Made by a program: the position numbers and the translations under genes | NCBI GenBank assembly: GCA_036258175.1 | Contig: DATAEE010000027.1 | Span: 2,779 to 66,778 of the forward strand | Direction of reading: 5' to 3' | Length of the DNA stretch: 64,000 bases | Source: Vicinamibacterales bacterium | Lineage (GTDB): Bacteria; Acidobacteriota; Vicinamibacteria; Vicinamibacterales; 2-12-FULL-66-21 | Part shown: positions 1-28,718 of the stretch, piece after piece | Numbering within the stretch: position 1 is the first letter of the stretch | Layout of the letters: every line of letters starts with the position of its first letter | Notes under the pieces: model-generated | Databases searched by the model: none | What the model saw: only the letters and a program-made list of their open reading frames with translations | What the model was told of the DNA's origin: nothing

Positions 1-495
1 CTCCATGATCACGACAGTCTTACCGACGCCGGCGCCGCCGAACGCGCCGACCTTCCCGCCCTTCAAAAAGGGACAGATCAGATCGATGACCTTGATGCCT
101 GTGGAGAGCACTTCTGGCGACGTCGACTGATCGACGAGCGGTGGCGGCGGCCGATGGATCGGATAGTACTTGTCCGCTTTTACGGGCCCGCGGTCGTCCA
201 CCGGGTTGCCGGTCACGTCGAACACACGACCCATCACCCCTTCGCCGACCGGCATGGAGATCGGTCCGCCGCTGTCGGTGACCTCGACGCCACGTTTGAT
301 GCCTTCGGTGCCCGACATCGAGATCGTTCGTACCCAGCTGTCGCCGAGGTGCTGCTGCACTTCGAGCGTCAGCCTGGTCGGCTGATTGTCGACCGTGTAT
401 TCAACCGTCAGCGCGTTGTAGATGGCCGGCAGCGACGCCGGAAACTCGACGTCGACCACCGGCCCGACGACCTGAACGACTTTACCGGTATTCAT
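1..495 (-). CDS. atpD: F1 ATP synthase subunit beta, N-terminal part (gene runs off left edge)
   Basis: Own reverse-strand translation from ATG at 495: [18 protein letters not shown]...[21 protein letters not shown] (Walker A). Follows atpG in canonical order. Absent from ORF track because it is open at the window edge. Confidence 0.9.
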
Positions 496-508
496 GAGCA
501 TTCTCACC

Positions 509-567
509 GCAGCCCTGAAGGGCTGCGCTACGCGTTCGTTCGTTGCAGCCCTAAAGGGCTGCGCTAC
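509..567. repeat. Two tandem REP-like hairpin units (GCAGCCCTGAAGGGCTGCGCTAC / GCAGCCCTAAAGGGCTGCGCTAC) in the atpG-atpD spacer
   Basis: Units at 509-531 and 545-567. Each has a 7-bp stem GCAGCCC/GGGCTGC with a 4-nt loop. A third GCGCTAC tail overlaps the atpG stop. Confidence 0.7.
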
Positions 568-576
568 AGGGCCGCG

Positions 577-1443
577 CTACGACGCCTGGCCGCCGGCGAT
601 TTCCAGCAGTTCCTTGGTGATGTTGCCCTGCCGGAGCTTGTTGTATTCGAGCGACAGCTCCTTGATCAGGTCGTCCGCGCTGTCGGTCGCGCTCTTCATC
701 GACACCATGCGGGCACTTTGCTCGCTCGCTTTCGCGTTCAAGAGCATGACGTACAGGTAGATGTTCAGGTAGTGCCCGAGCAGATACGCGAGCAAGGCTT
801 CGGGGCTTGGCTCGAACACGATCTCGCCCGTGTCGGCCATCAGCGCTTCCTCCGATTCCGCTCCAGGAACTGTGAGTCCTCTGATCTCGCCGACCGGCAG
901 ATACTCGACCGAGACCGGCTCCTGCGTGAGCGTGTTGACGAACCGGGTCGTCACGATCAGGACCTGGTCTACCTCTTTCTTCAGAAAGAGGTCGCGTGCG
1001 AAGCCGGCAATCGCTCTGGCTTCGGGAAACGTCGGCGAATCGCCGTACGCGAACTCGGCGGCGAGTTGCCGCTTCGTGCGTGCGACGAATTGTGCCGCCT
1101 TCCGCCCGGCGGTGATGAAGATCGTGGACTCGACTGGAAACTGCGACGCGACTCGGAAGACGTTCGTGTTGAGCGCGCCGCACAGCCCCTTGTCCGCTGC
1201 GATCAGAATAACTGCGCGACGGCGAACGGTGCGCACCTCCAGGAGCGGATGGGCGAAGAGGCGCGCGCGCGACGTCGCGCTCCGCTGGATGCGATACAGG
1301 AGCTGCGCAAACGGCTGCGATGCGGTCGCGGCCTGCTGTGCCTTGCGCATCTTCGACGCCGCGACCATCTGCATGGCCCGGGTGATCTGCGCGGTGCCCG
1401 AGATCGATTTGATGCGCCTGCGGAGTTCGCGTGGGCTCGCCAT
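577..1443 (-). CDS. atpG: F1 ATP synthase subunit gamma
   Basis: 288 aa, MASPRELRRRIKSISGTAQITRAMQMVAASKMRKAQ... and C-terminal LIKELSLEYNKLRQGNITKELLEI, typical gamma signatures. Sits between atpA and atpD. Confidence 0.93.
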   Translation of the reverse strand: MASPRELRRRIKSISGTAQITRAMQMVAASKMRKAQQAATASQPFAQLLYRIQRSATSRARLFAHPLLEVRTVRRRAVILIAADKGLCGALNTNVFRVASQFPVESTIFITAGRKAAQFVARTKRQLAAEFAYGDSPTFPEARAIAGFARDLFLKKEVDQVLIVTTRFVNTLTQEPVSVEYLPVGEIRGLTVPGAESEEALMADTGEIVFEPSPEALLAYLLGHYLNIYLYVMLLNAKASEQSARMVSMKSATDSADDLIKELSLEYNKLRQGNITKELLEIAGGQAS

Positions 1444-1445
1444 TC

Positions 1446-2978
1446 CTATTTCCAGGTTTGCTTGAACTGGTCGGCAGCCGCTTTCAGCGCCCCGGTCAGT
1501 TCCGGGCTCAAGCTCTTTTCCGCACCGATCTTCTTGAGCAGCTCACCCTTCCGCGTGGTCAGGAAGTCGGTCCAGCCCGCCTGGAACTCCTTGATCCGCT
1601 CGACCGGCACGTCGTCCACGTACCCGTTCTGAACCGCCCAGATGACGGCGACCTGCACTTCGACCGGGATCGGACTGTACTGAGGCTGCTTGAAGAGCTC
1701 GACAATCCGCTTCCCGCGATCGATCTTGGCTTGCGTCGCCGTATCCAGTTCCGATCCGAACTGCGCGAATGCCGCCAGCTCCCTGAACTGCGCGAGGTCG
1801 CCCTTCAGCTGCCCGGCGACCTGCTTCATCGCTTTGAGCTGCGCGGCGGAGCCCACGCGCGACACGGAGATGCCGACGGAAATCGCCGGCCGGATGCCCT
1901 GATAGAAAAGATCGGTTTCCAGGAAGATTTGACCGTCCGTGATCGAGATGACGTTGGTCGGAATGTACGCCGACACGTCTCCTGACTGGGTTTCGATGAT
2001 CGGCAGCGCCGTGAGCGACCCGTTGCCGTACTTTTCCCCGACCCGCGCGGCACGCTCGAGCAGGCGGCTGTGAAGATAGAACACGTCCCCCGGATACGCT
2101 TCCCGGCCGGACGGCCGTTTCAGCACGAGCGAGACCTGACGGTAGGCGACTGCGTGCTTCGAGAGGTCGTCGTAGACGATCAGCGCGTCCATGCCGTTGT
2201 CCATGAACCATTCCCCCATCGCGGCGCCGGCAAACGGCGCGAGGTACTGGCTCGTGGCCGAATCGGCGGCGGGCGAGGCGAGGATGATGCTGTACGGCAT
2301 CGCCCCCTCCTTCTCCAACGTCCCGATAATCCTGGCGATGGTGGACTGCTTCTGGCCGATCGCCACGTAGATGCTGTAGAGAGGCCGGTAGCTGGTGTCG
2401 CCAGCCGCCTCGGCCGCCTTGTTCAAGCGCGCCTGGCTGATCATCGTATCGATGCAGATCGTCGTCTTGCCGGTTGACCGGTCGCCGATGATCAACTCGC
2501 GCTGGCCGCGGCCGATCGGGATCATCGCGTCGATTGGCATGATCCCGGTCTGGACTGGCTGACCGATGGAGCGGCGCTTGATGATCCCGGGTGCCACCTT
2601 CTCTACCGGATACGCGGCTGTCCTGGGGATCGGACCCTTGCCGTCGAGCGGCTCACCGAGCGTGTTGACGACGCGGCCGAGGAGCCCCTTGCCGACCGGA
2701 ACCTGGAGCAGCTTGCCGGTCGCGCGGACCTCGGCCCCCTCTTCGAGCCGCGTGTAGTCGCCGAGAATGATGACGCCGACTTCGGTCTCGTCGAGATTGA
2801 GCGCGAGGCCGGTGATCCCCTGGCCGAAGTCGAGCATCTCGTTCAGCATCACGTCGCCGAGGCCCTCGACCTTCGCGACGCCGTCGCCGATCTCGCGGAT
2901 GATGCCGATCGTCTGCTTGGCGGTTGCCGCCTTGGCGCCGGCGATGTGCGCTTCTATTTCCTGAACGAGGTCAGCCAT
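1446..2978 (-). CDS. atpA: F1 ATP synthase subunit alpha
   Basis: 510 aa with GDRSTGKTT Walker A and conserved alpha-subunit sequence throughout. Confidence 0.95.
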
Positions 2979-2987
2979 GTTGGTCCT

Positions 2988-3380
2988 TTACAAGCTGGAT
3001 TCGAGCGCCGCCAGCCTGGCCCGCACGCTTCCGTCGTAGACGTCGCTGGCGATCTTGATTCGCATCCCGCCGATCAGTTCCGGCTTTTCGCTGAAGGCCG
3101 TGGCCAGCGCGCCTCCGTAACGGCGCGTCAAGCTCTCCTGGACGTCCCGGCGCACATCGTCGGTCAGCGGCGTCGCGCTCTCGACGATCGCCGTGTGCCG
3201 ATCGCGCTCCAGTCTCACCAGGCGCTGAAAGTCCGAAAGCACAGCGAGCGTCCCGCGGCGCTTCGACTCGGCGATCCGGCGCGCGATCTGCCGGACGCGC
3301 GCGTCATCGAGACGTCCGTCGGCCATGGAGAGACGAAACAGTTGCCGGGCGGCCCGTTTCGACTTTCTCGTCGTCTTCAT
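2988..3380 (-). CDS. atpH: F1 ATP synthase subunit delta (OSCP), unusually short at 130 aa
   Basis: C-terminus IGGMRIKIASDVYDGSVRARLAALESSL matches the delta/OSCP end. Operon position between atpF and atpA. Confidence 0.75.
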   Translation of the reverse strand: MKTTRKSKRAARQLFRLSMADGRLDDARVRQIARRIAESKRRGTLAVLSDFQRLVRLERDRHTAIVESATPLTDDVRRDVQESLTRRYGGALATAFSEKPELIGGMRIKIASDVYDGSVRARLAALESSL

Positions 3381-3472: not shown

Positions 3473-4015
3473 CTATTGCAGTTGCCGTACGGTTTCCTCT
3501 GTGAGACGCCGGTGATCCTCCGCCGTCAGGATCTTGCCCGTGACCGTGGCCGCGGTTTGAACGACGAGCCGGCCAACCTCGCGCTTCACTTCCGCCAGCA
3601 CGCGGGCTCGGTCCCGCTCGGCGGCCTCGCGCGCCCGAGCGAGGATGTCTTCGGCGGCAGCGATCGCTTTCTGCGTCTCTTCCACCTGGACGCGAGCGGC
3701 CGCCGCGCGGGCCTCCTCGATCAACTGCTTTCCTTCGGCGCCCGCCTTCGTCAGCACTTCATGGCGCTCGAACTCAATCCGCGCCAGCTCCGCCTTGATC
3801 TTTTCCGCATTGGCCAGACCGCTGGCGATCTGCTCCCGCCGCGCGTCGAGCATGCGGAGAATCGGTTTGTAGGCGAACAGATACAGCACGACACAGACGA
3901 TGCCGAAGCTGATCATCTGGGCGCCCAGGTGAGGCCAGTCGACGCCGAAGGTGCGCGCGACCTGCTCGATCTGTCCGCCGCTCTCCGCCGCGGCCTGCAC
4001 CGCCAGGAAATGCAT
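3473..4015 (-). CDS. atpF: Fo ATP synthase subunit b
   Basis: 180 aa: N-terminal TM (ISFGIVCVVLYLFAYKPI) followed by a long charged helix. Operon position. Confidence 0.85.
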   Translation of the reverse strand: MHFLAVQAAAESGGQIEQVARTFGVDWPHLGAQMISFGIVCVVLYLFAYKPILRMLDARREQIASGLANAEKIKAELARIEFERHEVLTKAGAEGKQLIEEARAAAARVQVEETQKAIAAAEDILARAREAAERDRARVLAEVKREVGRLVVQTAATVTGKILTAEDHRRLTEETVRQLQ

Positions 4016-4019
4016 GGCG

Positions 4020-4208
4020 CTACTGAACGAGGAACAGGGCGTAGAACACGATCGCTTCCGCGAAGGCGATGGCCAGAATCGACTGGACCATGATCTTCGT
4101 GGACGCTCCGGGGTTTCGCCCGACCGCCGCCGACGCTCCCATGCCGATCAGCCCGACGCCAATCGCGGCGCCCAACGCTGCCAGCCCTACGTGCAAACTG
4201 CCAATCAT
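4020..4208 (-). CDS. atpE: Fo ATP synthase subunit c
   Basis: 62 aa hairpin proteolipid with GRNPG loop and carboxylate in AFAEAIVFYAL. Confidence 0.9.
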   Translation of the reverse strand: MIGSLHVGLAALGAAIGVGLIGMGASAAVGRNPGASTKIMVQSILAIAFAEAIVFYALFLVQ

Positions 4209-4232: not shown

Positions 4233-5084
4233 TCAGCCGTGCGCAGGCGCGTGACCGGTTTCTTCGTGATGACAAATCAGGAGCGTGAAGACGGCAGTCA
4301 ACAGCATGAACACCATCGCCTGGACCAGACCCACCAGGAGCTCCATGAAATAGAACGGAATCGGCAGCAGCCAGCCCAGGCCCGGCACGATCGTGGCCAT
4401 GGCCTCGAGCATGTTCTCACCGGCGAAGATGTTGCCGTACAGACGAAAGCTCAACGAGACCGGCCGAAACAGAATGGAAACAATCTCCAGCAAGCCGGCC
4501 GCAAAGAACACGACGATCATCAGAATCTTCAGGACGCCCTCGGTTTCCCCCTTCGGAGCGAAGAGCTCCTTGGCAACGCCGCGTGCCCCGACTTCCTGGA
4601 ACGCCCAGACGATCCAGCACGCGAAGAAAATCAGCGCCATCGCCAGCGTGAGATTGAGATCGGCATTGGCGCCGCGAAACAGCGGCTGATCGATCCTGAA
4701 ACCGTGCTCTGTCTGATGCCCCCACCCGATCGTCCCGACGCCGGGCACGAGGCCGATCCAGTTGCAGGCAAGGATGAAGATGAAGATGGTCGCGAAAAAC
4801 CAGAACGTCCGGTCGACGAGGTGGCGGCCGATGATGCTCTCCAGAAGGCCGTAGAGGCTTTCCACGAGCCACTCGAAAAAGTTCTGCACCCCGCTCGGCA
4901 CCTGGGTCATCTTCCGCGTCGCCATTTGCGCGAAGACGATGAGGCCGACCGCCACGATCCATGTGACGACCATCGAGTTCGTGATGGGAAACCCGAAGAC
5001 GCGCCCGATCTCGACCGCCTTCTGCGGCAGGCCGTGCTCCACGGGTTCGGCGAGAGCAAAGCAGACGACGGCGGGGATGGTCAT
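4233..5084 (-). CDS. atpB: Fo ATP synthase subunit a
   Basis: 283 aa polytopic protein with LSFRLYGNIFAGE (essential Arg motif). First gene of the operon; no atpI seen. Confidence 0.9.
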   Translation of the reverse strand: MTIPAVVCFALAEPVEHGLPQKAVEIGRVFGFPITNSMVVTWIVAVGLIVFAQMATRKMTQVPSGVQNFFEWLVESLYGLLESIIGRHLVDRTFWFFATIFIFILACNWIGLVPGVGTIGWGHQTEHGFRIDQPLFRGANADLNLTLAMALIFFACWIVWAFQEVGARGVAKELFAPKGETEGVLKILMIVVFFAAGLLEIVSILFRPVSLSFRLYGNIFAGENMLEAMATIVPGLGWLLPIPFYFMELLVGLVQAMVFMLLTAVFTLLICHHEETGHAPAHG

Positions 5085-5108
5085 TTGCGGTGTGTGTGTC
5101 CCCGGGAC

Positions 5109-5124
5109 AGCACGGGGCGTGCCA
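5109..5124 (-). promoter_or_regulatory. Candidate sigma-54 (-24/-12) promoter in front of atpB
   Basis: Minus strand reads TGGCACGCCCCGTGCT. GG and GC are 12 nt apart as in TGGCACG-N4-TTGCW. The GC lies 26 nt upstream of the atpB ATG (5084). Confidence 0.4.
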
Positions 5125-5218
5125 CAAGTCGATCGGGCTCTGCGGTTCGCGAAAGTCTGATTTCAAAAGCGCTTGACCCGCGAGCGGCGGCGCGCGACGC
5201 TACTAGCCCTCGGGAGCC

Positions 5219-5253
5219 CTCCGGTATGCCGGACGTTCTCCGCGATGCCGGAG
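5219..5253. promoter_or_regulatory. Tandem dyad sites (putative EBP upstream activating sequence, cluster S1)
   Basis: CTCCGGTATGCCGGAC (5219-5234) and CTCCGCGATGCCGGAG (5238-5253), 19 bp centre to centre. The same motif recurs at 7902, 19090, 24491 and 28628. Confidence 0.55.
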
Positions 5254-5293
5254 CCGACGGGACACTCTGGACGCAGATGCCGTGTAACACCGG

Positions 5294-5309
5294 TGGTACG
5301 CCTGCTGCA
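5294..5309 (+). promoter_or_regulatory. Candidate sigma-54 promoter for the 5354-7872 operon
   Basis: TGGTACGCCTGCTGCA with correct GG/GC spacing. 45 nt upstream of ATG 5354 and 69 bp from the centre of dyad 5219-5234. Confidence 0.5.
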
Positions 5310-5353
5310 AGATGCCGTGTCCACGTGAGCCATCCCGCGAGAGAGAGGATGCG

Positions 5354-5926
5354 ATGATGCTCGGAGAAAGAGCGACGACCGGTTTGATTTCGTTGGCGAT
5401 GCTGTCGGTGGTGGTGTCTTCCGCCTACGCCCAGACGGGTTCCGAGACGTTCACCGCCACGGCGGCGGTCAAGACGGCCGGTTCGGCTGCGGCAAGCGCA
5501 CCGGTGACGATTACGGTTACTCGCAAGATGCCACAGAGCGAAGCCGACAAGCTGCTCGCCGCCTTCAAGTCCGGCGGCGCCGCAGAGTTGCGGAAGGCGC
5601 TCGTTGGCGTTCCGCCCACGGGTTCCGTCCAACTCGGTGCCGGAAAACCGACGCAAACCCGGATGACGATCGAGCGAACCACCGACAAGGGCCGGCTCCT
5701 GACGATCGTGACCGACACCCCCATCCTCTTTCTGGGCGCCGGCGTCACGGGCGCCAAGCCCAAAGAGGGCTACGACTTCGCCATCATCGACCTCGAAGTG
5801 GACGCCAAGGGGGCCGGTTCGGGAACACTCGCGCCCGCAGCCAAGGTCACGGTGAAAGAGGGCGTGTTCGTGGTGGAGGACTATGCGTCCGAGCTCGTCA
5901 AGCTGACCGGCGTCGCGAGGAAGTGA
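5354..5926 (+). CDS. Secreted hypothetical protein (~190 aa)
   Basis: Start chosen at MMLGERATTGLISLAMLSVVVSSAYAQ (signal peptide) after the GAGAGAGGA RBS. No family recognised. Confidence 0.65.
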   Translation: MMLGERATTGLISLAMLSVVVSSAYAQTGSETFTATAAVKTAGSAAASAPVTITVTRKMPQSEADKLLAAFKSGGAAELRKALVGVPPTGSVQLGAGKPTQTRMTIERTTDKGRLLTIVTDTPILFLGAGVTGAKPKEGYDFAIIDLEVDAKGAGSGTLAPAAKVTVKEGVFVVEDYASELVKLTGVARK

Positions 5927-7872
5927 GTTCCGGGGAAGTGAGCCCATTGGCGCGTGAGACCATCGACACGACGCGAACGTCTCAGCTGGCCGTCGAGGCC
6001 TCGCCGAGCGGCGTCCTGCTCGTGACTTCGGACGGAACGATCGTCCTGGTCAATCGCGAGCTGGAGCGACAGTTCGGCTACGTGCGGGACGAACTGGTCG
6101 GCCAGTCCGTCAACCTGCTGTTGCCGGAGGATGACGCTCTCGCGCGTGTCATTGAAACCGAGTCCGTCGTCGAGGGGCGTGAGATTCACGGACGCCGCAA
6201 AGACGGCTCCCTCATCCCGGTCGAAATCGAGCTCACGCCGCTGCATGAGGCAGGCCGTGTGCTCGTGCTGGCGTCGGTCGTCGACATCACCGAGCGACAG
6301 CAGGTCGAAGACATCCATCGGAAGGCGCTCGAGAATCAGCTCGCGTTCGAGCGGCTCGTTGCGGAGCTCTCCGCACGATTCATCGACATTCACCCGGAGC
6401 AGATCGAATCGTCGATTCAGGATGGCCTGCGCCGGATCGTCGAATCGTTTGACCTCGACCGGGGCCTCTTTTACGCAATCGAACCGGACGGCGTGTTTTC
6501 TGACATCACGAGTTGGACGGGCCCGGATATCCCGAGCATCCCGCGGCGGGTGTCCGCGAAGGAACGCTTTCCGTTTACCCTCGAGCGGATCCTGTCGGGG
6601 GACGTCGTGTCGTTCTCGACGCTTGGCGAAATTCCAGACGAGCGAGACCGGGAATCGTTCCGAGCGCTCGGAACGAAATCGGCCGTCATCGTATCCATGT
6701 CAGTGGCAGGACGAGTGGCCGGGGCCGTCGGTTTCAGCACGGTGCGCGCCGAGCGGACGTGGGCGCCGCCGGTCGTGCACCGGTTCAAAGTCATCGCAAG
6801 CGTCTTCGCCCAGGTCATGTCGCGGCGCCAGAGTGAAGCCACCCTCCGAAACGCCCTGGCCGAAGTGGAGCGTCTGAAGGAAGACCTCCAGGTCGAGAAC
6901 GTGCACCTGCGGCGCGAAGTGCGCGAATGGTCAGGACCTGCGCCGATCGTCGGGCAGAGTGCGGCGATCCGGCAGGTGCTGGAGCAAATCGAGCAGGTGG
7001 CCGCGACAGATTCGACGGTCCTGCTGCTCGGCGAAACGGGAACCGGCAAAGAGCTGTTCGCGACGCAGATCCACGAACTCGGTCCGCGCCGCGACCGACC
7101 GATGGTGCGTACGAATTGCGCGGCGATTCCATCGACGCTCATCGAGAGCGAGTTGTTCGGCCGGGAAAAGGGAGCGTTTACCGGGGCGCTGGCCCGGCAG
7201 GTCGGCCGGTTCGAGCTCGCAAGCGGGTCGACGATTTTTCTTGACGAGATTGGAGACCTGCCGTCCGACGTGCAGGTGAAGCTGCTGCGTGTTCTGGAGG
7301 AGGGAACCATCGAGCGGCTCGGAAGCCCGCATCCGATCAAGGTCAACACTCGAATCATCGCGGCGACGCACCGGAACCTGGAGCGGCGCGTAGCTGAAGG
7401 GGCGTTCCGAAGCGACCTCTACTACCGGCTCAACGTCTTCCCCATTCGCGTGCCGCCGCTGCGGGAACGCGTGGACGATATTCAGATGCTGGCCTGGCGC
7501 TTCGTCGAGGAATTCTCGCGGACCTTTGGCAGACACGTGGAGGAGATCACGCCCGAAAGTCTGAGCGCGCTCAGGCACTATCCGTGGCCGGGCAACATCC
7601 GGGAACTGCGCAACGTCGTCGAGCGCGCGATGATCACGGCTTCGGGTCCTCGCCTGACCATCGCCCCGCCGCTCCTGTCGCCGGCCGCCGCGCGGCGAAG
7701 TCCCAAACTCGTGGACGTGGAGACCGAGCACATCCGCGGAGTACTGGAGAGTACCGGCTGGCGAATCCGCGGCCCCGGCGGCGCCGCGGACCGGCTCGGG
7801 CTCAAGCCCACGACGCTCGAAACGCGGATGGCAAAGCTCGGGCTCAAACGTCCGGGAACACAGCCCCACTAA
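5923..7872 (+). CDS. Sigma-54-dependent transcriptional activator, PAS-GAF-AAA+-HTH (EBP1)
   Basis: GETGTGKE Walker [25 protein letters not shown]-terminal [30 protein letters not shown]. The GTG start overlaps the upstream stop (GTGA). Confidence 0.9.
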   Translation: MSSGEVSPLARETIDTTRTSQLAVEASPSGVLLVTSDGTIVLVNRELERQFGYVRDELVGQSVNLLLPEDDALARVIETESVVEGREIHGRRKDGSLIPVEIELTPLHEAGRVLVLASVVDITERQQVEDIHRKALENQLAFERLVAELSARFIDIHPEQIESSIQDGLRRIVESFDLDRGLFYAIEPDGVFSDITSWTGPDIPSIPRRVSAKERFPFTLERILSGDVVSFSTLGEIPDERDRESFRALGTKSAVIVSMSVAGRVAGAVGFSTVRAERTWAPPVVHRFKVIASVFAQVMSRRQSEATLRNALAEVERLKEDLQVENVHLRREVREWSGPAPIVGQSAAIRQVLEQIEQVAATDSTVLLLGETGTGKELFATQIHELGPRRDRPMVRTNCAAIPSTLIESELFGREKGAFTGALARQVGRFELASGSTIFLDEIGDLPSDVQVKLLRVLEEGTIERLGSPHPIKVNTRIIAATHRNLERRVAEGAFRSDLYYRLNVFPIRVPPLRERVDDIQMLAWRFVEEFSRTFGRHVEEITPESLSALRHYPWPGNIRELRNVVERAMITASGPRLTIAPPLLSPAAARRSPKLVDVETEHIRGVLESTGWRIRGPGGAADRLGLKPTTLETRMAKLGLKRPGTQPH

Positions 7873-7901
7873 GCCCCATAGCGCAGTCGCGTTCTGCCAG
7901 C

Positions 7902-7936
7902 CTCCGGCATGCCGGGGAGCCTCTGCGATTCCGGGG
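7902..7936. promoter_or_regulatory. Tandem dyad sites (cluster S5) just after the EBP1 stop
   Basis: CTCCGGCATGCCGGGG (7902-7917) and CTCTGCGATTCCGGGG (7921-7936), 19-bp phasing. 26/35 identical to the 5219-5253 module. Confidence 0.5.
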
Positions 7937-8035: not shown

Positions 8036-8051
8036 TGGAACGACTGCTGCT
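8036..8051 (+). promoter_or_regulatory. Candidate sigma-54 promoter for the 8052-15685 operon
   Basis: TGGAACGACTGCTGCT with correct GG/GC spacing; -12 region CTGCT as at 5294 and 28703. It abuts ATG 8052, so using it would imply the ATG 8064 start and an almost leaderless mRNA. Confidence 0.35.
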
Positions 8052-8390
8052 ATGCGGGATGGCATGGTGAGGCTGGCCGTGGCGCTGAGAGGGTCGGCGC
8101 GCCACGCTCAGGAGCTCGTCGAAACCTTCCGCTTCCTGATCGTGAGCACCCGGCTCGAACCAGGCTGTCTGGGTTGCTCCGCGTGGGCGGACCCGGACTC
8201 GACCGTTCACTACGTCGAGGAATGGACGACCGAACCCGAGATGCGGCGCCGCGTGCAGTCCGCGAACTTCACATCACTTCTGGCGGTGCTCGAAGCCGCA
8301 CGCGAGCCGCCGCGCATCCAGTTTCAGTTCGTTTCGACCACGCGCGGGCTCGACTACGTGGAGGAAGTCAGGCGCGACTCCGTGAGCTGA
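8052..8390 (+). CDS. ABM (antibiotic biosynthesis monooxygenase-like) domain protein
   Basis: Pattern ...LEPGCLGCSAWADPD..VHYVEEWTTEPEMRRRVQS..F fits the ABM fold. Alternative start ATG 8064 (MVRLAV). Confidence 0.55.
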   Translation: MRDGMVRLAVALRGSARHAQELVETFRFLIVSTRLEPGCLGCSAWADPDSTVHYVEEWTTEPEMRRRVQSANFTSLLAVLEAAREPPRIQFQFVSTTRGLDYVEEVRRDSVS

Positions 8391-8400
8391 CGGCGACCCG

Positions 8401-9174
8401 ATGAAGCTAAAACAGTACGAGAAAACGCTGCGGAAACTGCAGGTGCAGCTCTGCCACCTCCAGGAATGGGTCAAACAGAAAGGCCTGCGCGTCGTCGTCG
8501 TGTTCGAAGGACGGGACGGCGCCGGCAAGGGAGGCACGATCCGGGCCCTTACCGAACGGGTGAGCCCGCGTGTGTTCAGGGTCGTGGCCCTGCCGGCCCC
8601 GTCGGATCGCGAGAAGTCGCAGGTGTACATGCAGCGCTACCTGCAGCACTTCCCCGCCGCCGGCGAAATCGTCATCTTCGATCGGAGCTGGTACAACCGC
8701 GCCGGCGTCGAGTACGTCATGGGATTCTGCTCTGAGACCGAGCATCGGCGGTTTCTGGAGCTCTGTCCTCAGATCGAAAAGTTCATGGTGGACGGCGGCA
8801 TCATCCTGATCAAGCTGTGGCTGGAAGTGAGCAACAAGGAGCAGCAGCGGCGCTTCGAGGCGCGGATCAAGGATCCGGTGCGCCAGTGGAAGCTGAGCCC
8901 GATGGACTTACCGTCGCGAAAGCGCTGGTACGACTACTCCCGCGCGCGCGACATGATGTTGAAGAAGACCGATACGCGCTACGCTCCCTGGTACATCGTC
9001 CGGTCGGACGACAAGCGGGCGGCGCGTCTCAATACGATTTCCCATCTGCTGTCACGAATCCCGTACAAGAAGCTGCCTCGCGAGAAGATCAAGCTCCCGG
9101 GGCGGTCGTCCAAGCGCGCGTACGACGACGACGCGTCAATCAAACGCCGGCGTTTCGTCCGCGAGCGGTATTGA
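8401..9174 (+). CDS. ppk2: Polyphosphate kinase 2, single-domain
   Basis: VVVVFEGRDGAGKGGTI Walker A, FDRSWYNRAGVE, WKLSPMD, APWYIVRSDDK: canonical PPK2 motifs. Confidence 0.9.
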   Translation: MKLKQYEKTLRKLQVQLCHLQEWVKQKGLRVVVVFEGRDGAGKGGTIRALTERVSPRVFRVVALPAPSDREKSQVYMQRYLQHFPAAGEIVIFDRSWYNRAGVEYVMGFCSETEHRRFLELCPQIEKFMVDGGIILIKLWLEVSNKEQQRRFEARIKDPVRQWKLSPMDLPSRKRWYDYSRARDMMLKKTDTRYAPWYIVRSDDKRAARLNTISHLLSRIPYKKLPREKIKLPGRSSKRAYDDDASIKRRRFVRERY

Positions 9175-18431: not shown

Positions 18432-18992
18432 TTAACGCGCCTCGGTGTCGGCGAACTTCGCCTCCAGCGCCTCGAGATCGGCGCGGAGAACCTTGAGTTC
18501 CGACGCGGGGACCCGTCCTTCCAGCCGCGCCAGCCTCTCGACCAGGGCGGCTTCTTTCTCGTCACCCGGGTACGCCTCCCCGCCATGGACGTCCCTGTCG
18601 GTCCCGTAGGCCATCTTGTGTAAAACGGGCTTCGTATAGGCCCAGACCCAGGCGAGCGGCCAGAGCAGCCCGCCGAACACCAGCGACAGGAGGCACAACG
18701 TCCGGATTGCTTCGAACTGCGGGTGGTGCCGCTTGTGGGCAATCTGCTCGGGCAGAATGTGGACCAGCCAGAACAGCACAATGAGCACAACCGGGACGAC
18801 GAAGAGGACGACCAGGGCGAGCACCGTGGCGAGCGTGTCCTCTACCGCCGGCGGGAGGAACGAGGCGTGCGCCTCACGGGGCACGGCCACGAGCAGGAGA
18901 GCGATTGACAGGCCGGTGATCACTCGGGTGATCGTGCGCATGATTGGCCCCGCAACTAGACGGCTGACTGGCTCGTGCACAGCACTCGCCAT
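18432..18992 (-). CDS. DUF3302 (YiaW-like) inner-membrane protein
   Basis: ILPEQIAHKRHHPQFEAIRTLCLLSLVFGGLLWPLAWVWAY is the DUF3302 core. The true start may be ATG 18941 (MRTITRV...). Confidence 0.75.
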   Translation of the reverse strand: MASAVHEPVSRLVAGPIMRTITRVITGLSIALLLVAVPREAHASFLPPAVEDTLATVLALVVLFVVPVVLIVLFWLVHILPEQIAHKRHHPQFEAIRTLCLLSLVFGGLLWPLAWVWAYTKPVLHKMAYGTDRDVHGGEAYPGDEKEAALVERLARLEGRVPASELKVLRADLEALEAKFADTEAR

Positions 18993-18996
18993 GCCA
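18981..18996 (-). promoter_or_regulatory. Candidate sigma-54 promoter for the DUF3302-HlyD-OMF operon
   Basis: Minus strand reads TGGCATGGCGAGTGCT with correct GG/GC spacing. Overlaps the first ATG (18992). -12 box GTGCT is identical to the atpB candidate. Confidence 0.4.
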
Positions 18997-19070: not shown

Positions 19071-19106
19071 CTCCGACATTGCGGGCGTTCTCCGGTATAC
19101 CGGAGA
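19071..19106. promoter_or_regulatory. Dyad cluster S2: perfect 18-bp palindrome plus a weak phased partner
   Basis: TCTCCGGTATACCGGAGA (19089-19106). Weak partner CTCCGACATTGCGGGC (19071-19086) 19 bp away. Lies between the DUF3302 operon and EBP2. Confidence 0.55.
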
Positions 19107-19140: not shown

Positions 19141-21057
19141 TTGCCTTCGGCTAGACTGGGCTCAGTGCGAATCGCGCAGGATGAAAGCCTGATTCGTCTC
19201 GCGGCGGAGGCCCTGCCTCACGGTGTCGTCGTCGTGGCGTCCGACGGCACTATCGCCCTCGTCAGTCGGGAGCTCGAACGGCAATTCGGCTATTCCCGCG
19301 AAGAGTTGATCGGACGGCCGCTCGAGATACTCCTGTCGGAGGCTTGGCGGACCGCTCACGGGGAGCCCCGCGAAGGCCTCGGGCGCCGCCGCGACGGCTC
19401 CGAGTTCCCCGTCGAGATCCGGCTGAGCCCATTACAGGTCGAGGGCGGCACGCTGCTACTGGCCTCGGTAGTCGACATTTCGTCGCGCAAACAGCGCGAC
19501 GCGGCCAACCGCGCGGCGCTCGAAGAGCAGTTCGAGTTCGAACGGCTGGTCGCCTATCTAACTGTCCAGTTCATCGATCTACCGGTTGATCGCGTCAATG
19601 ACACGATTCGCACGGCGCTCGGCCTGATCGCCGAGGCGCTCGATCTGGACCGGTGCACGTTCTACGAGATCGCCGCGGACGGCACGCTGACCGTTCCCGT
19701 GAGCTGGGAGCGAGAGGGGATCCCCGCTGTACCCTCCCCGATGCTGGCAAAGGAACGCTTGCCGTGGGCATTCGAGCAGGTGTTTTCGGGCATTCCCGTC
19801 ACGTTTTCTCATGTCGACGAGATCCCGAGTGGCGAAGACCGCGCGAGCTACGCCGTTCTGGGCGTCAAATCCACGGTGACGGTGCCACTCTCAGTCGAGG
19901 GTCAAGTCGTTGGCGGCGTGGCGTTCAACATGATGCGCAGCGAGCGCAGATGGTCCCCCGAAACGGTTCATCGCCTCTGCGTGATCGGCGCCGCGTTCGG
20001 CAACGTGCTGACACGCCGCCGCAGCGACGAGGCGTTGGCCTCGGCACTCGCGGAGGTGAAGCACCTGAGCGCCCGGCTGCAGGCGGAAAACGTCTACCTG
20101 CGGCGTGAAGTCAATGACCGGCTCGGCGCCAACATCGTCGTCGGACAAAGTGAAGCTATCGGTCGAGTACTGGATCAGGTCAAGCACGTGGCGGCGACCG
20201 ACTCCACGGTGTTATTGCTCGGCGAAACCGGCACCGGCAAGGAGGTCTTCGCGACGCAGATTCACGAGCTGAGCGCCCGGCACAACCACGTCATGGTCCG
20301 CGTCAACTGCTCTGCGATTCCTGCGACGCTTATCGAGAGCGAATTGTTCGGCCGGGAGAAAGGTGCCTTTACCGGCGCCCTCGCGCGGCAAATCGGGCGC
20401 TTCGAGCTGGCGAATCACTCGACCATCTTCCTCGACGAGATCGGCGAGTTGCCGCCGGAGGTTCAGGTCAAGCTGCTCCGCGTGATCGAGGAGCGGCACA
20501 TCGAGCGCCTCGGAAGCCCGAACGCCATCCATGTGGATGTGCGGATCATCGCCGCGACGCACCGGGATCTCGAGCGGGAGATCGCCGAAGCGGCGTTTCG
20601 TGAGGACCTCTTCTACCGGCTGAATGTGTTCCCGGTCCGGGTCCCTCCCCTGCGGGACCGCGTCGAGGACATTCCGCTGCTGGTCTGGCGCTTCGTCGAC
20701 GAGTTCTCGAAGGCGTTCGGAAAGAGAATCGACGTCATCTCGCGCGAAAACATGACGGCTTTGCAGCAATATGCGTGGCCGGGCAACATACGCGAGCTGC
20801 GCAATGCCGTCGAGCGCGCGATGATCGTCGCGACCGGTCCACGCCTGACCATCGCGCCGCCGACCCAGACCGCCGCCACGGCAAGGCGCAGTACGCGGCT
20901 CGCCGATGTCGAAAAAGAGCATATCCGCAGCGTGCTGGACGGCACGGGGTGGCGCATTCGGGGCCCGGGCGGAGCGGCGGATCGCCTTGGCCTCAGGCCG
21001 ACGACGCTCGAAACGCGTCTGGCCAAGCTGGGACTGAGACGTCCCAAGCAGTTATAG
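19141..21057 (+). CDS. Sigma-54-dependent transcriptional activator, PAS-GAF-AAA+-HTH (EBP2)
   Basis: Paralog of 5923 and 24558: [44 protein letters not shown]. Start uncertain (TTG 19141 or GTG 19165). Confidence 0.9.
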
Positions 21058-24470: not shown

Positions 24471-24523
24471 ATCCGGTAATTCACATGACGGTCCGGAATG
24501 CCGGAGCTGAAAAATTTCCGGAG
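24471..24523. promoter_or_regulatory. Dyad cluster S3 between the TonB receptor and EBP3
   Basis: Full site GTCCGGAATGCCGGAG (24491-24506), flanked by half sites TCCGGTAAT (24472) and TTCCGGAG (24516-24523) at about 17-20 bp phasing. Confidence 0.5.
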
Positions 24524-24557: not shown

Positions 24558-26537
24558 GTGAAGCCAAACCAGACAATCACTATGGCCGAACGAGCGAGGC
24601 CCCTCTCCGAGACCGGGCCCAGGTGGCCCGTCACGGACGATCAGGGTCTGTTTCGTCTCGCAGCGGAGTCGCTGCCGAGCGGCATCGTTGTCGTCGCGCC
24701 GGACGGAACCATCGTGCTCGTCAGTCACCAGCTCGAATTGCAGTTCGGATATTTCCGCGAAGAACTGATCGGGCAATCTGTCGACATTCTCGTGCCCGAA
24801 GAATCTCGCGCAGGGACCGGTGAGCCGCAGTCAGCACGCGGCCGCAACCTGCACGGGCGGCGCAAAGATGGGAGCGTCTTCCCGGCTGAGATCGGGCGGA
24901 CCCGGCTCGAAACCGACGAGGGCGTTTTCGTTCTCTGGTCTGTCGTCGACCTCAGTGCCCGGCTCGACGTCGAAAATGCTTCCAGGCAGGGGATCGAACG
25001 GGAGCTCGAGTTCGAGCGGCTCATCGCGGAGCTGTCCTACAAGTTCATCAACCTGCCGCCCGATGAAGTCGTCGAGGCCATTCGCGACGCGCTGCGACGC
25101 ATCGGCGAGGCACTCGAGATCGAACGGTGCTCGTTCTTTCGGGTTCAGCCGGACGGCGAGCTGCTCGCACCGATCAGCTGGGCGCGGGCCGGCATCGCGC
25201 AGCCACCCGTCGTGACGGCGGCCAGGGAGCACTTTCCCTGGGCCGTCGACAATATCCAGAGCGGCCGCATGTTCTGCTTTTCCACGACCGCGGAAGTGCC
25301 GAGCGACGTGGACCGCGCGGGGTACGAGGGATACGGCATTCGCTCATCCGTGACGGTCCCGATCCGCGTGGCCGGCCGCGTCGTGGGCGCGCTCGGGTTC
25401 AACATGGTTGAGCGGGAACGCGTATGGTCGCCGGAGACCCTTCATCGCCTCACGGTGTTGGCCACCATCTTCGGAAACGTCCTCGCGCGCCTGGAAGGGG
25501 ACACAGAGTTGCGTCAAGCGATCTCCGACGTCGAATGTCTTCGCGAGCGCCTGGATGCGGAAAACAGGTACCTCCGCCGCGAGGTTCAGGAGCGGCTTGG
25601 GACCGGGGCCATCATCGGTCAGAGCGCGGCGGTCCGCCGTGTGCTCGAACAGATCCGCCAGGTGGCGAGCACCGACTCGACCGTGCTGCTGCTCGGCGAG
25701 ACCGGCACGGGAAAGGAGCTTTTTGCGACGCAGATCCACGAGCTCAGCGGACGGCGCGATCGGGCGATGGTGCGCGTGAATTGCGCGGCGATTCCCGCGA
25801 CGCTCATGGAAAGTGAATTGTTCGGTCGCGAGAAGGGGGCGTACACCGGCGCGCTCGCCCGGCAGATCGGCCGCTTCGAGCTCGCCAACCATTCGACGAT
25901 CTTCCTCGACGAGATCGGCGACCTTCCGCCGGACGTCCAGGTCAAACTGCTGCGCGTGCTGGAGGAGCGGCAGATCGAGCGCCTTGGCAGCCCCAGGAGC
26001 ATCAACGTGGACGTGCGGATCATCGCGGCCACGCATCGGGATCTCGACAAGCGAATCCTCGATGAAGCGTTCCGGGAGGACCTCTACTATCGGCTCAACG
26101 TCTTCCCGATCCGCGTGCCGCCGCTTCGTGAGCGCGTTGAGGACATCCCGCTGCTCGTCTGGCGATTCGTCGAGGAGTTCTCCAAGTCGTTTGGCAAGCG
26201 GATCGACGCGATCCCGAACGAGAACATGGCGGCGCTGCAGCGGTACGCGTGGCCAGGGAATATCCGCGAGCTTCGCAACGTCGTCGAACGCGCGATGATC
26301 GTCGCGATCGGCACCCGGCTGACGATTCCACTTACAGCGTCGGAGACGCGTCCGGCAACAAAACCGCGCACCACCACGCTGGCGGATCTCGAGAAGGCGC
26401 ACATCCGCCTCGTGCTGGAAAACACCGGCTGGCGCATCCGGGGTGCGGGCGGCGCCGCCGAGCAGCTGGGTCTCAAGCCGACGACGCTCGAAACGCGAAT
26501 GGCGAAGCTGGGCCTGGCGCGCCTCCGGCCAAACTAA
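24558..26537 (+). CDS. Sigma-54-dependent transcriptional activator, PAS-GAF-AAA+-HTH (EBP3), GAYTGA variant
   Basis: GETGTGKE; loop reads GAYTGA (25836-25853); GWRIRGAGGAAEQLGLKPTTLETRMAKLGL. Possible start at ATG 24582. Confidence 0.9.
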   Translation: MKPNQTITMAERARPLSETGPRWPVTDDQGLFRLAAESLPSGIVVVAPDGTIVLVSHQLELQFGYFREELIGQSVDILVPEESRAGTGEPQSARGRNLHGRRKDGSVFPAEIGRTRLETDEGVFVLWSVVDLSARLDVENASRQGIERELEFERLIAELSYKFINLPPDEVVEAIRDALRRIGEALEIERCSFFRVQPDGELLAPISWARAGIAQPPVVTAAREHFPWAVDNIQSGRMFCFSTTAEVPSDVDRAGYEGYGIRSSVTVPIRVAGRVVGALGFNMVERERVWSPETLHRLTVLATIFGNVLARLEGDTELRQAISDVECLRERLDAENRYLRREVQERLGTGAIIGQSAAVRRVLEQIRQVASTDSTVLLLGETGTGKELFATQIHELSGRRDRAMVRVNCAAIPATLMESELFGREKGAYTGALARQIGRFELANHSTIFLDEIGDLPPDVQVKLLRVLEERQIERLGSPRSINVDVRIIAATHRDLDKRILDEAFREDLYYRLNVFPIRVPPLRERVEDIPLLVWRFVEEFSKSFGKRIDAIPNENMAALQRYAWPGNIRELRNVVERAMIVAIGTRLTIPLTASETRPATKPRTTTLADLEKAHIRLVLENTGWRIRGAGGAAEQLGLKPTTLETRMAKLGLARLRPN

Positions 26538-28627: not shown

Positions 28628-28683
28628 CCCCGGCATTTCGGAGGAACTCCGTTCGGGCGGAGGAATACCGTTGAAATCCGGAG
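28628..28683. promoter_or_regulatory. Dyad cluster S4: three phased sites between divergent operons
   Basis: CCCCGGCATTTCGGAG (28628), CTCCGTTCGGGCGGAG (28647), CCGTTGAAATCCGGAG (28668). Spacing 19 and 21 bp. Confidence 0.5.
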
Positions 28684-28702
28684 CAAACGGCCGCGGCGCC
28701 CC

Positions 28703-28718
28703 CGGCACGGTGACTGCT
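28703..28718 (+). promoter_or_regulatory. Candidate sigma-54 promoter for the 28782-32554 genes
   Basis: CGGCACGGTGACTGCT: GGCACG-N4-CTGCT with correct spacing. 64 nt upstream of ATG 28782 and 69 bp from the centre of dyad 28628-28643. Confidence 0.5.

Follow-up and report, generated by a model that had tools for sequence, protein, structure and literature searches.

The atp locus

The stretch of DNA considered here (64,000 nucleotides of contig DATAEE010000027.1 from a Vicinamibacterales bacterium; the 64-kb window, in what follows) begins within an F1Fo ATP synthase (atp) operon read on the minus strand, and the intergenic region ahead of its first gene, atpB, contains a -24/-12 element, named P_atp here, of the type read by sigma-54 (RpoN) RNA polymerase. 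On the strength of its conservation in related genomes, the element at 5124-5109 is taken to be a functional sigma-54 promoter for a standard F1Fo atp operon, a reading to which a probability of about 0.85 may be assigned, and P_atp is probably the main promoter of the operon. The genes and sites on which this reading is built are, in the order of their coordinates:

1 to 501, minus strand: atpD, beta subunit, N-terminal part, continuing past the window edge (PF02874 and the start of PF00006)
577 to 1443, minus strand: atpG, gamma subunit (PF00231)
1446 to 2978, minus strand: atpA, alpha subunit (PF00006, PF00306, PF02874)
2988 to 3380, minus strand: atpH, delta/OSCP subunit, short form (PF00213, profile positions 54-172)
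3473 to 4015, minus strand: atpF, subunit b (PF00430)
4020 to 4208, minus strand: atpE, subunit c (weak NCBIfam subunit-C matches; PF00137 in public gene calls on identical contigs)
4233 to 5084, minus strand: atpB, F0 subunit a (PF00119, E 1.4e-44; TIGR01131 above cut-off)
5085 to 5098, minus strand: predicted P_atp leader, 14 nt, its start (about 5097-5099) set by the typical sigma-54 spacing of 12 nt past the GC
5109 to 5124, minus strand: P_atp, predicted -24/-12 element TGGCACGCCCCGTGCT, GG at 5123-5122 and GC at 5111-5110
5220 to 5233, no strand: atp-proximal dyad TCCGGTATGCCGGA, class TCCG-N6-CGGA, candidate activator site; centre at 5226.5, 104 bp from the P_atp GG (5122-5123)
5239 to 5252, no strand: second dyad TCCGCGATGCCGGA, candidate activator site, 19 bp from the first, centre to centre
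5294 to 5309, plus strand: divergent sigma-54-type -24/-12 element TGGTACGCCTGCTGCA, predicted to drive the small protein, the activator and the genes beyond
5354 to 5926, plus strand: small secreted protein of 190 aa with a signal-peptide-like N-terminus, first gene of the divergent operon
5923 to 7872, plus strand: EBP1, sigma-54 activator with PAS, GAF, AAA+ (GAFTGA) and HTH_8 domains (PF00158, E 1e-69)

From 5084 to 1 the minus strand carries the genes for subunits a, c, b, delta, alpha, gamma and the start of beta; in relatives beta also comes after gamma, and epsilon lies outside the window. The operon is regarded as standard F1Fo because delta is present (PF00213) and subunit a passes TIGR01131 and fails the model of the alternate ATPase (TIGR03306, 47.8 bits against a cut-off of 302). 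The N-type (alternate) ATPase, which has the gene order atpD-C-Q-R-B-E-F-A-G and lacks a delta subunit, was rejected on the presence of delta, on the TIGR03306 score and on the position of atpB as the first gene behind the promoter.

The delta (OSCP) open reading frame (ORF) is short, counting 130 aa from the ATG and no more than 148 aa between stops, and the identical 130-aa gene call is found on independent metagenome contigs. The gap between the gamma and beta genes (502-576, minus strand) contains two tandem copies of a stem-loop, GTAGCGCAGCCCTT(T/C)AGGGCTGC, which may be an element for mRNA stability or processing.

An earlier note, made from the letters of the sequence, had described a near-consensus -24/-12 element on the minus strand, 26 nt before the atpB ATG, and this is what is read directly in the sequence: P_atp agrees with TGGCACG-N4-TTGCW at 11 of the 12 specified positions on the atpB strand, its GG and GC doublets are separated by 10 nt, a spacing that is invariant in 60 unique homologous promoters, and from the C of the -12 GC (5110) to the A of the ATG (5084) there are 26 nt. 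The (GT)5 run at 5090-5099, which the note had also reported, is present and gives the predicted leader an (AC)5 repeat in the mRNA sense. For the atp-proximal dyad the distance of 104 bp from the GG was correct, while the limits then given, 5219-5234, were one base too wide on each side. The second dyad, 123 bp from the GG of P_atp and 50 bp from that of the divergent promoter, had been overlooked. Reading of the sequence also bears out the divergent element at 5294-5309, with its GG 69 bp from the centre of the atp-proximal dyad.

Conservation of P_atp in related genomes

By itself, the match that defines P_atp is within chance inside the window. The exact pattern TGGCAC-N6-TGC is found once where 0.52 copies per window are expected, and at least one copy appears in 38 of 100 shuffles; with one mismatch allowed, 18 occurrences are found and 16.7 expected. 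A fortuitous match in GC-rich DNA would agree with these figures, and the significance of P_atp derives from its conservation in other genomes, not from the statistics of the window. Comparisons were made with the best 80 atpB loci from species-representative genomes, all of them metagenome-assembled genomes (MAGs), oriented on atpB. The relatives identified through AtpB are labelled Acidobacteriota, Vicinamibacterales or Vicinamibacteria and are up to 86% identical in this protein, which places the source of the window among the uncultured Vicinamibacteria-type Acidobacteriota; no cultured carrier was met, the best 120 matches of the protein search being metagenome or MAG sequences only.

In 39 of the 43 nearest relatives, whose AtpB is 75-86% identical, the atpB strand carries TGGCAYG-N4-GTGCT immediately ahead of the gene. 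The strict form is missing from L030, L032, L040 and L042 in this group, and it is absent from the more distant loci, L044-L080. There was no further match in 1.86 Mb (80 loci, both strands), and three extra matches are also at atpB. The DNA around P_atp cannot be aligned among the relatives, and the N4 spacer varies (CCCC, AGCC, CGCC, GGGC, CACC, GGAC and others). Accordingly the information content is 1.8 bits at the specified positions, 0.65 in the N4 spacer and 0.16 on average in the flanks, a contrast to which the anchoring on the motif itself contributes. A 6-mer enrichment computed without any motif given in advance, over the 300 nt preceding atpB (42 regions against controls), returned as its top words GTGGCA (29/42, versus 2.8 in controls) and CGTGCT (31/42, versus 6.0), with words of the dyads and the -12 word of the divergent promoter ranking next.

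The position of the element relative to the gene is kept as well. The C of the -12 box mostly lies 16-28 nt before the atpB start codon in relatives, many of which have a GGAG-like site in the leader, and where AtpB has an N-terminal extension the element is located upstream of the extended ORF. For these two reasons P_atp can be said to track the 5' end of the operon. The (GT)5/(AC)5 repeat of the leader is not kept, so that this repeat and a missing ribosome-binding site are specific to the window. The AtpB sequence of the window is found, identical, on 23 JGI metagenome contigs; contigs with identical AtpB display 13 changes in the 270-nt intergenic region, none of which falls in either promoter core or in either dyad.

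The long form of AtpB (about 300-400 aa) was seen in L008, L014, L024, L034-L036, L038, L095, L098 and L105, and its N-terminal extension resembles a signal peptide or a transmembrane segment.

The dyads are conserved with the promoter. Tandem TCCG-N6-CGGA dyads, 19-20 bp apart, were found in 35 of 40 sequences; the nearer one is centred at 102-110 bp from the GG of P_atp in 22 of these 35, and at 72-75, 83, 91-96 or 49 bp in the others. The main cluster of distances (102-110 bp) covers most of a helical turn, and no claim of helical phasing is made. The DNA between the dyads and P_atp is not conserved, as expected if it serves only as a loop. A GATTC word is present in this loop DNA in 11 of 40 sequences, in nine of which (L001, L005, L010, L012, L013, L017-L019 and L031) it stands at about -41 from the promoter. 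An IHF-like site in the loop was not established, with GATTC as the only candidate and an AT content that is barely raised; the word might be a site for a DNA-bending protein in a subset of relatives only.

The metagenome collection was also scanned for TCCGGNATNCCGGA followed, after 72-102 nt, by TGGCAYGNNNNGTGCT, the downstream gene being left unspecified. The 33 matches are distributed as follows:

26 of 33: atpB directly downstream
3 of 33: DUF3302-HlyD operon
1 of 33: MscS-like channel with a divergent EBP1 homologue
1 of 33: SnoaL-like lipoprotein
1 of 33: another lipoprotein
1 of 33: membrane protein divergent from an ABM ORF

These counts indicate that the composite of dyad and promoter is a real regulatory module and that atpB is its principal target. 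Together with the recurrence of the element at the same place in 39 of 43 relatives and the lack of a background match in 1.86 Mb, they refute a chance origin of P_atp, the probability of which is negligible.

The same set of loci bears on whether the operon encodes a second, condition-specific ATPase, in addition to an everyday ATP synthase with ordinary control whose genes lie elsewhere. No more than 64 kb of the genome are visible, some bacteria have two or three rotary ATPases, as is the case for Pelobacter carbinolicus (PMC3543383), and one distant MAG supplied two copies (L059 and L061). However, the window operon has the full standard F-type gene set including delta, and a subunit a that fails the alternate-ATPase model. 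Furthermore, AtpA keeps its synteny and 79-92% identity from one acidobacterial class to another, which is the pattern expected of vertical inheritance, and each Vicinamibacteria-type MAG contributed one locus to the top 80. That the operon is a second ATPase is, on this balance, improbable.

In MAGs more distant than those discussed above, good sigma-54-like matches were noticed upstream of atpB, namely TGGCACGGCTTGTGCA in L067 (at about 172 nt) and TGGCATCATCGTTGCT in L052/L053 (at about 345 nt), the MAGs being labelled Verrucomicrobia and Deltaproteobacteria. From these sequences, sigma-54 control of atp may reach beyond the Vicinamibacteria-type clade.

The divergent promoter and the facing operon

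On the other side of the dyads, a YGGYACR-N4-CTGCA element is conserved in the relatives; between it and the ATG of the small protein there is a leader of about 35-45 nt that includes GAGAGG. Its distance from the nearer dyad is about 95 bp in most relatives versus 50 bp in the window, and that from the atp-proximal dyad is about 114 bp versus 69 bp, so that the spacing of 69 bp is not a conserved one. From the comparison of 50 bp with about 95 bp, the window has lost about 45 bp on the divergent side. An 11-bp direct repeat, AGATGCCGTGT, brackets the divergent promoter of the window at 5276-5286 and 5311-5321. It is not present in the relatives compared, and one of its copies is changed in the strain variants L081 and L082; the repeat may be the scar of a rearrangement that shortened the DNA between dyad and divergent promoter by about 45 bp.

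With P_atp, the tandem dyads and the divergent -24/-12 element all conserved, the proposal of the earlier note that one upstream activator region is common to two divergent sigma-54 promoters holds across the clade by sequence comparison, and the conservation of element and dyads upstream of atpB, by which the note suggested that its reading be judged, is what was found. The gene content around this region falls into three synteny classes. In the first, which is that of the window, atpB faces the small protein, the activator and polyphosphate kinase 2 (PPK2); in the second it faces the small protein and then PPK2; in the third it faces PPK2 directly, with a divergent promoter of the TGGAAC type, like the element at 8036 in the window. 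From these three classes, the invariant core of the arrangement is atp and PPK2 in divergent orientation on either side of a single enhancer.

Downstream of EBP1 the following features belong to the same strand of the argument:

7901 to 7918, no strand: dyad-like CTCCGGCATGCCGGGGAG, ahead of the third promoter
8036 to 8051, plus strand: third -24/-12-like element TGGAACGACTGCTGCT, ahead of the ABM-domain ORF and PPK2
8401 to 9174, plus strand: PPK2 (PF03976, E 1.7e-95; TIGR03707 above cut-off)

The third element lies 128 bp past the dyad-like sequence and is followed by the ABM-domain ORF, PPK2, DUF3300 and DUF2950, in this order; PPK2 is syntenic with atpB in relatives. Because the ATG listed for the ABM-domain ORF (8052) directly abuts the -12 box of this element, translation probably begins at the in-frame ATG at 8064 instead. 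That codon follows the predicted transcription start by about 2 nt, and the mRNA would then have almost no leader.

The small secreted protein has homologues (60-79% identical) at the same position in 30 relatives. It gave no significant match to Pfam or NCBIfam and no meaningful one to the Protein Data Bank (PDB), and its single-sequence AlphaFold model (pLDDT 33) is too low in confidence for use.

Activators and sister sites in the window

Two paralogues of EBP1 and one further promoter with a dyad are encoded farther along the window:

18981 to 18996, minus strand: sister promoter TGGCATGGCGAGTGCT of the DUF3302-HlyD-OEP operon, its GG 103 bp from the dyad TCCGGTATACCGGA at 19091-19104
19141 to 21057: EBP2, EBP1 paralogue (PF00158, E about 1e-69; GAFTGA loop)
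24558 to 26537: EBP3, EBP1 paralogue (PF00158, E about 1e-69; GAYTGA loop)

EBP2 and EBP3 are about 60% identical to EBP1, and the helix-turn-helix is nearly identical in all three, for which reason they probably all read the same dyad. Each stays below every cut-off of the named activator families of NCBIfam, with best scores of 361-383 bits versus 529 for NifA, 830 for FhlA and 476 for NorR, and with FhlA and NifA as the best-scoring, sub-cut-off models. EBP1-3 are, thus, PAS-GAF activators outside the named families. The closest solved structures to the PAS domain of EBP1 (window 5923-6300) are the haem-PAS domains of FixL and DosP (FixL, E 8e-11). Sensing of O2 through haem by EBP1 was considered and rejected, and is not supported because the six-residue PYRHEH segment with the proximal, haem-ligating histidine of the F-alpha helix aligns to a gap, that is, the histidine-bearing segment of the PAS domain is deleted.

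The class TCCG-N6-CGGA is enriched in the window (11 occurrences versus 4.3 expected; none of 100 shuffles reaches 11). Its exact form TCCGG-N4-CCGGA has three copies, all intergenic and each adjoining sigma-54 activator genes; those at 19091-19104 and 24492-24505 lie just 5' of the EBP2 and EBP3 genes. The location of these dyads and the nearly shared DNA-binding helix suggest auto- or cross-regulation among EBP1-3. At the DUF3302 operon the geometry described in the earlier note (103 bp between GG and dyad versus 104 bp at P_atp, with a GTGCT -12 box in both) is upheld, the dyad being that at 19091-19104. The spacing of 69 bp between GG and dyad centre that the note had found common to the divergent promoter and to a site at 28703 is also real. 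In the stretch 28630-28717 the 28703 promoter, CGGCACGGTGACTGCT, is accompanied by the dyad-like CCGGCATTTCGG and the perfect TCCGTTCGGGCGGA, 19 bp apart and 69 and 50 bp from the GG, with the same geometry as at 5294-5309. It precedes the gene for an 800-aa protein with no family match.

Assessment of the promoter assignment

Besides the chance-level statistics of the window, a number of observations weigh against the assignment of P_atp as a sigma-54 promoter, among them two, the internal symmetry of the element and the limited sensitivity of the sigma-70 scan, that are given below with the explanations they favour. The -12 box is GTGCT, versus TTGCW in the textbook consensus. The leader implied by the position of the element would be very short, about 14 nt in the window and roughly 5-16 nt in relatives, and in the window it is devoid of a Shine-Dalgarno sequence. 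An EBP1 homologue is encoded in the divergent operon of 20 of 39 relatives, so that about half of them have no activator gene beside the atp operon. Finally, no rpoN gene was found, the RpoN-box peptide being absent from the six-frame translations of the 64-kb window and of the fetched loci; the presence of sigma-54 in the organism is deduced from the activators that it encodes.

As to symmetry, positions 3-7 and 11-15 of the element are reverse complements in the window (GCACG-N3-CGTGC). The conserved block could thus form a hairpin in the 5'-leader RNA (GGCACG-NNN-CGUGCU), or it could serve a dimeric regulator as a palindromic operator, with transcription in either case starting further upstream. 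The fixed short distance to the start codon would fit such a role, as would the frequent C-to-T change at position 6, which keeps a G-U pair, and the compensatory T-A of L016. However, three of the five pairs (GCA/TGC) are inherent in the sigma-54 consensus. In the 60 unique sequences the pairs 3-15 and 5-13 are invariant and there is only one compensatory change, while pair 6-12 is C-G in 34, T-G in 25 and T-A in one, so that the palindrome is broken in 25 of 60. T1 is invariant yet has no conserved partner; folding is no better than that of shuffled sequences (z = +0.36); and the DUF3302 sister promoter retains the boxes and not the palindrome. Moreover, neither a hairpin nor an operator would account for the dyads about 100 bp upstream or for the link with sigma-54 activators. 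With constraint on bases, no covariation and no excess of folding, this explanation was rejected as the main one and is considered highly unlikely. Constraint on the bases rather than on their pairing is what is expected of an asymmetric DNA motif read by a protein, such as a sigma-54 site.

Dual control is a more serious contender. According to this explanation the sigma-54 promoter only boosts expression under some signal, and basal atp transcription is left to internal promoters or to an unrecognised promoter of the sigma-70 type in the same intergenic region. An ATP synthase is as a rule essential and made constitutively, promoters of the sigma-70 type are low in information and their position need not be conserved, and in Cupriavidus metallidurans the atp operon, treated as an RpoD housekeeping unit, has RpoD promoters (PMC9045368). 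On the other side, the -24/-12 element is the sole block between the dyads and the start codon that is conserved throughout the clade, the GATTC word being confined to 11 of 40 sequences. Read-through from upstream into atp is not possible because the neighbouring gene is divergent. Scanning for the sigma-70 consensus gave no match on the atp strand of the window's intergenic region, nor any in the 40 such regions covered (window plus 39 relatives), a negative result that carries little weight because the scan was also empty across 5.8 kb with several gene starts and is, thus, insensitive here. Dual control is possible, with a likelihood somewhat short of even.

Relation to known systems

In the literature searched, no report of a sigma-54-dependent F-type atp operon, or of this element, was found, and neither ATP synthase nor Acidobacteria figure in a survey of sigma-54 regulons across phyla from 2025. 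The nearest precedent is that of Corynebacterium glutamicum, where SigH is reported to control the F0F1 operon atpBEFHAGDC from a promoter upstream of atpB (PMC3917460). The likeness is in the use of an alternative sigma factor at a promoter in this position, and the case is a precedent for atp operons with something other than plain housekeeping control. SigH is a member of the sigma-70 family and works without an ATP-dependent activator, whereas the sigma-54 mechanism requires an enhancer-bound ATPase and has no basal activity.

The regulatory kind is a known one, and it is the target, an F1Fo atp operon, that is unusual; by analogy with the systems that follow, the atp-PPK2 architecture is classical for sigma-54. 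In the E. coli hyc/hyp system, governed by FhlA, two divergent sigma-54 promoters flank the activator sites in one intergenic region. The divergent layout, an activator made of GAF, AAA+ and helix-turn-helix domains, and a target in energy metabolism are shared with the locus described here, but the target there is formate hydrogenlyase and here F1Fo ATP synthase. EBP1 also differs from FhlA in having an extra N-terminal PAS domain, in its score (362 bits versus a cut-off of 830) and in the site, TCCG-N6-CGGA. In E. coli zraP/zraSR, divergent sigma-54 promoters with ZraR sites also drive the auto-activated gene of the activator. Common features are a small secreted or periplasmic protein and an activator expressed from sigma-54 promoters with common inverted-repeat sites. 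However, in the present case the small protein and the activator are in one operon, with atp as the partner, ZraR is a response regulator with a kinase whereas EBP1 is a one-component PAS-GAF sensor, and the small secreted protein has no detectable similarity to ZraP in PDB, Pfam and NCBIfam searches.

The Psp proteins of the PspF/pspABCDE system protect the proton-motive force, and PspF, which has no sensor domain, is controlled by PspA. The resemblance lies in sigma-54 control tied to membrane energetics, an activator gene divergent from the target and sites about 100 bp upstream; the difference is that the target is here the ATP synthase itself, and no psp genes were seen. As for the paired sites, at glnAp2 tandem NtrC dimer sites about 100-140 bp upstream nucleate the oligomer, which contacts the polymerase by DNA looping, and the atp dyad pair has a similar tandem upstream arrangement. 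NtrC is a phosphorylated response regulator for nitrogen control, in contrast with the PAS-GAF sensor and the proposed energy or envelope regulon of the atp locus.

Proposed mechanism and significance

From the sequences we infer binding of sigma-54, binding of activators at the dyads, the start site and the co-activation of both promoters, and on this basis a course of events can be proposed. Sigma-54 RNA polymerase would bind the -24 GG and the -12 GC of P_atp and wait there as a closed complex. Activators of the PAS-GAF-AAA+-HTH type (EBP1 and its paralogues EBP2 and EBP3) would bind the dyads at 5220-5233 and 5239-5252 as dimers and form an ATPase ring, which would loop out the approximately 100 bp of unconserved DNA and open P_atp, with transcription beginning around 5098, some 14 nt ahead of the atpB ATG. 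The same pair of dyads would serve the divergent promoter at 5294-5309 and, through it, the small secreted protein, EBP1 and, further on, PPK2. If one pair of dyads does serve both promoters, as proposed, a single signal would turn on both the ATP synthase and a nucleotide kinase that depends on polyphosphate. Given the partners (PPK2, an MscS-type channel, an efflux-like system and secreted proteins), it may be speculated that the response is to the state of energy or of the envelope.

Sigma-54 promoters have essentially no basal activity and need an activator that burns ATP, and they normally serve conditional functions, among them nitrogen assimilation, flagella and stress responses. To judge from the conserved architecture, these acidobacteria (the source organism and about 40 related species) probably switch the ATP synthase on by a signal rather than expressing it constitutively. 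A stronger version, in which this is the only F1Fo operon in this abundant class of soil Acidobacteriota, is transcribed solely from the sigma-54 promoter, and is co-activated with PPK2, the MscS-type channel and the envelope efflux-like system by the PAS-GAF activators, is to be held only tentatively and is on the whole unlikely. Were it true, synthesis of the ATP synthase would be an all-or-none, signal-gated event, for example on leaving dormancy or on rewetting, and RpoN with at least one activator would be essential.

The finding provides a precisely defined set of promoter, enhancer and activators. If the proposal is correct, the main ATP-making enzyme would be gated by a sensed signal in a widespread, uncultured soil lineage. 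This would account for a possible essential role of sigma-54 beyond the few groups for which one is known, and it has a bearing on the passage of slow-growing soil oligotrophs into and out of low-energy states.

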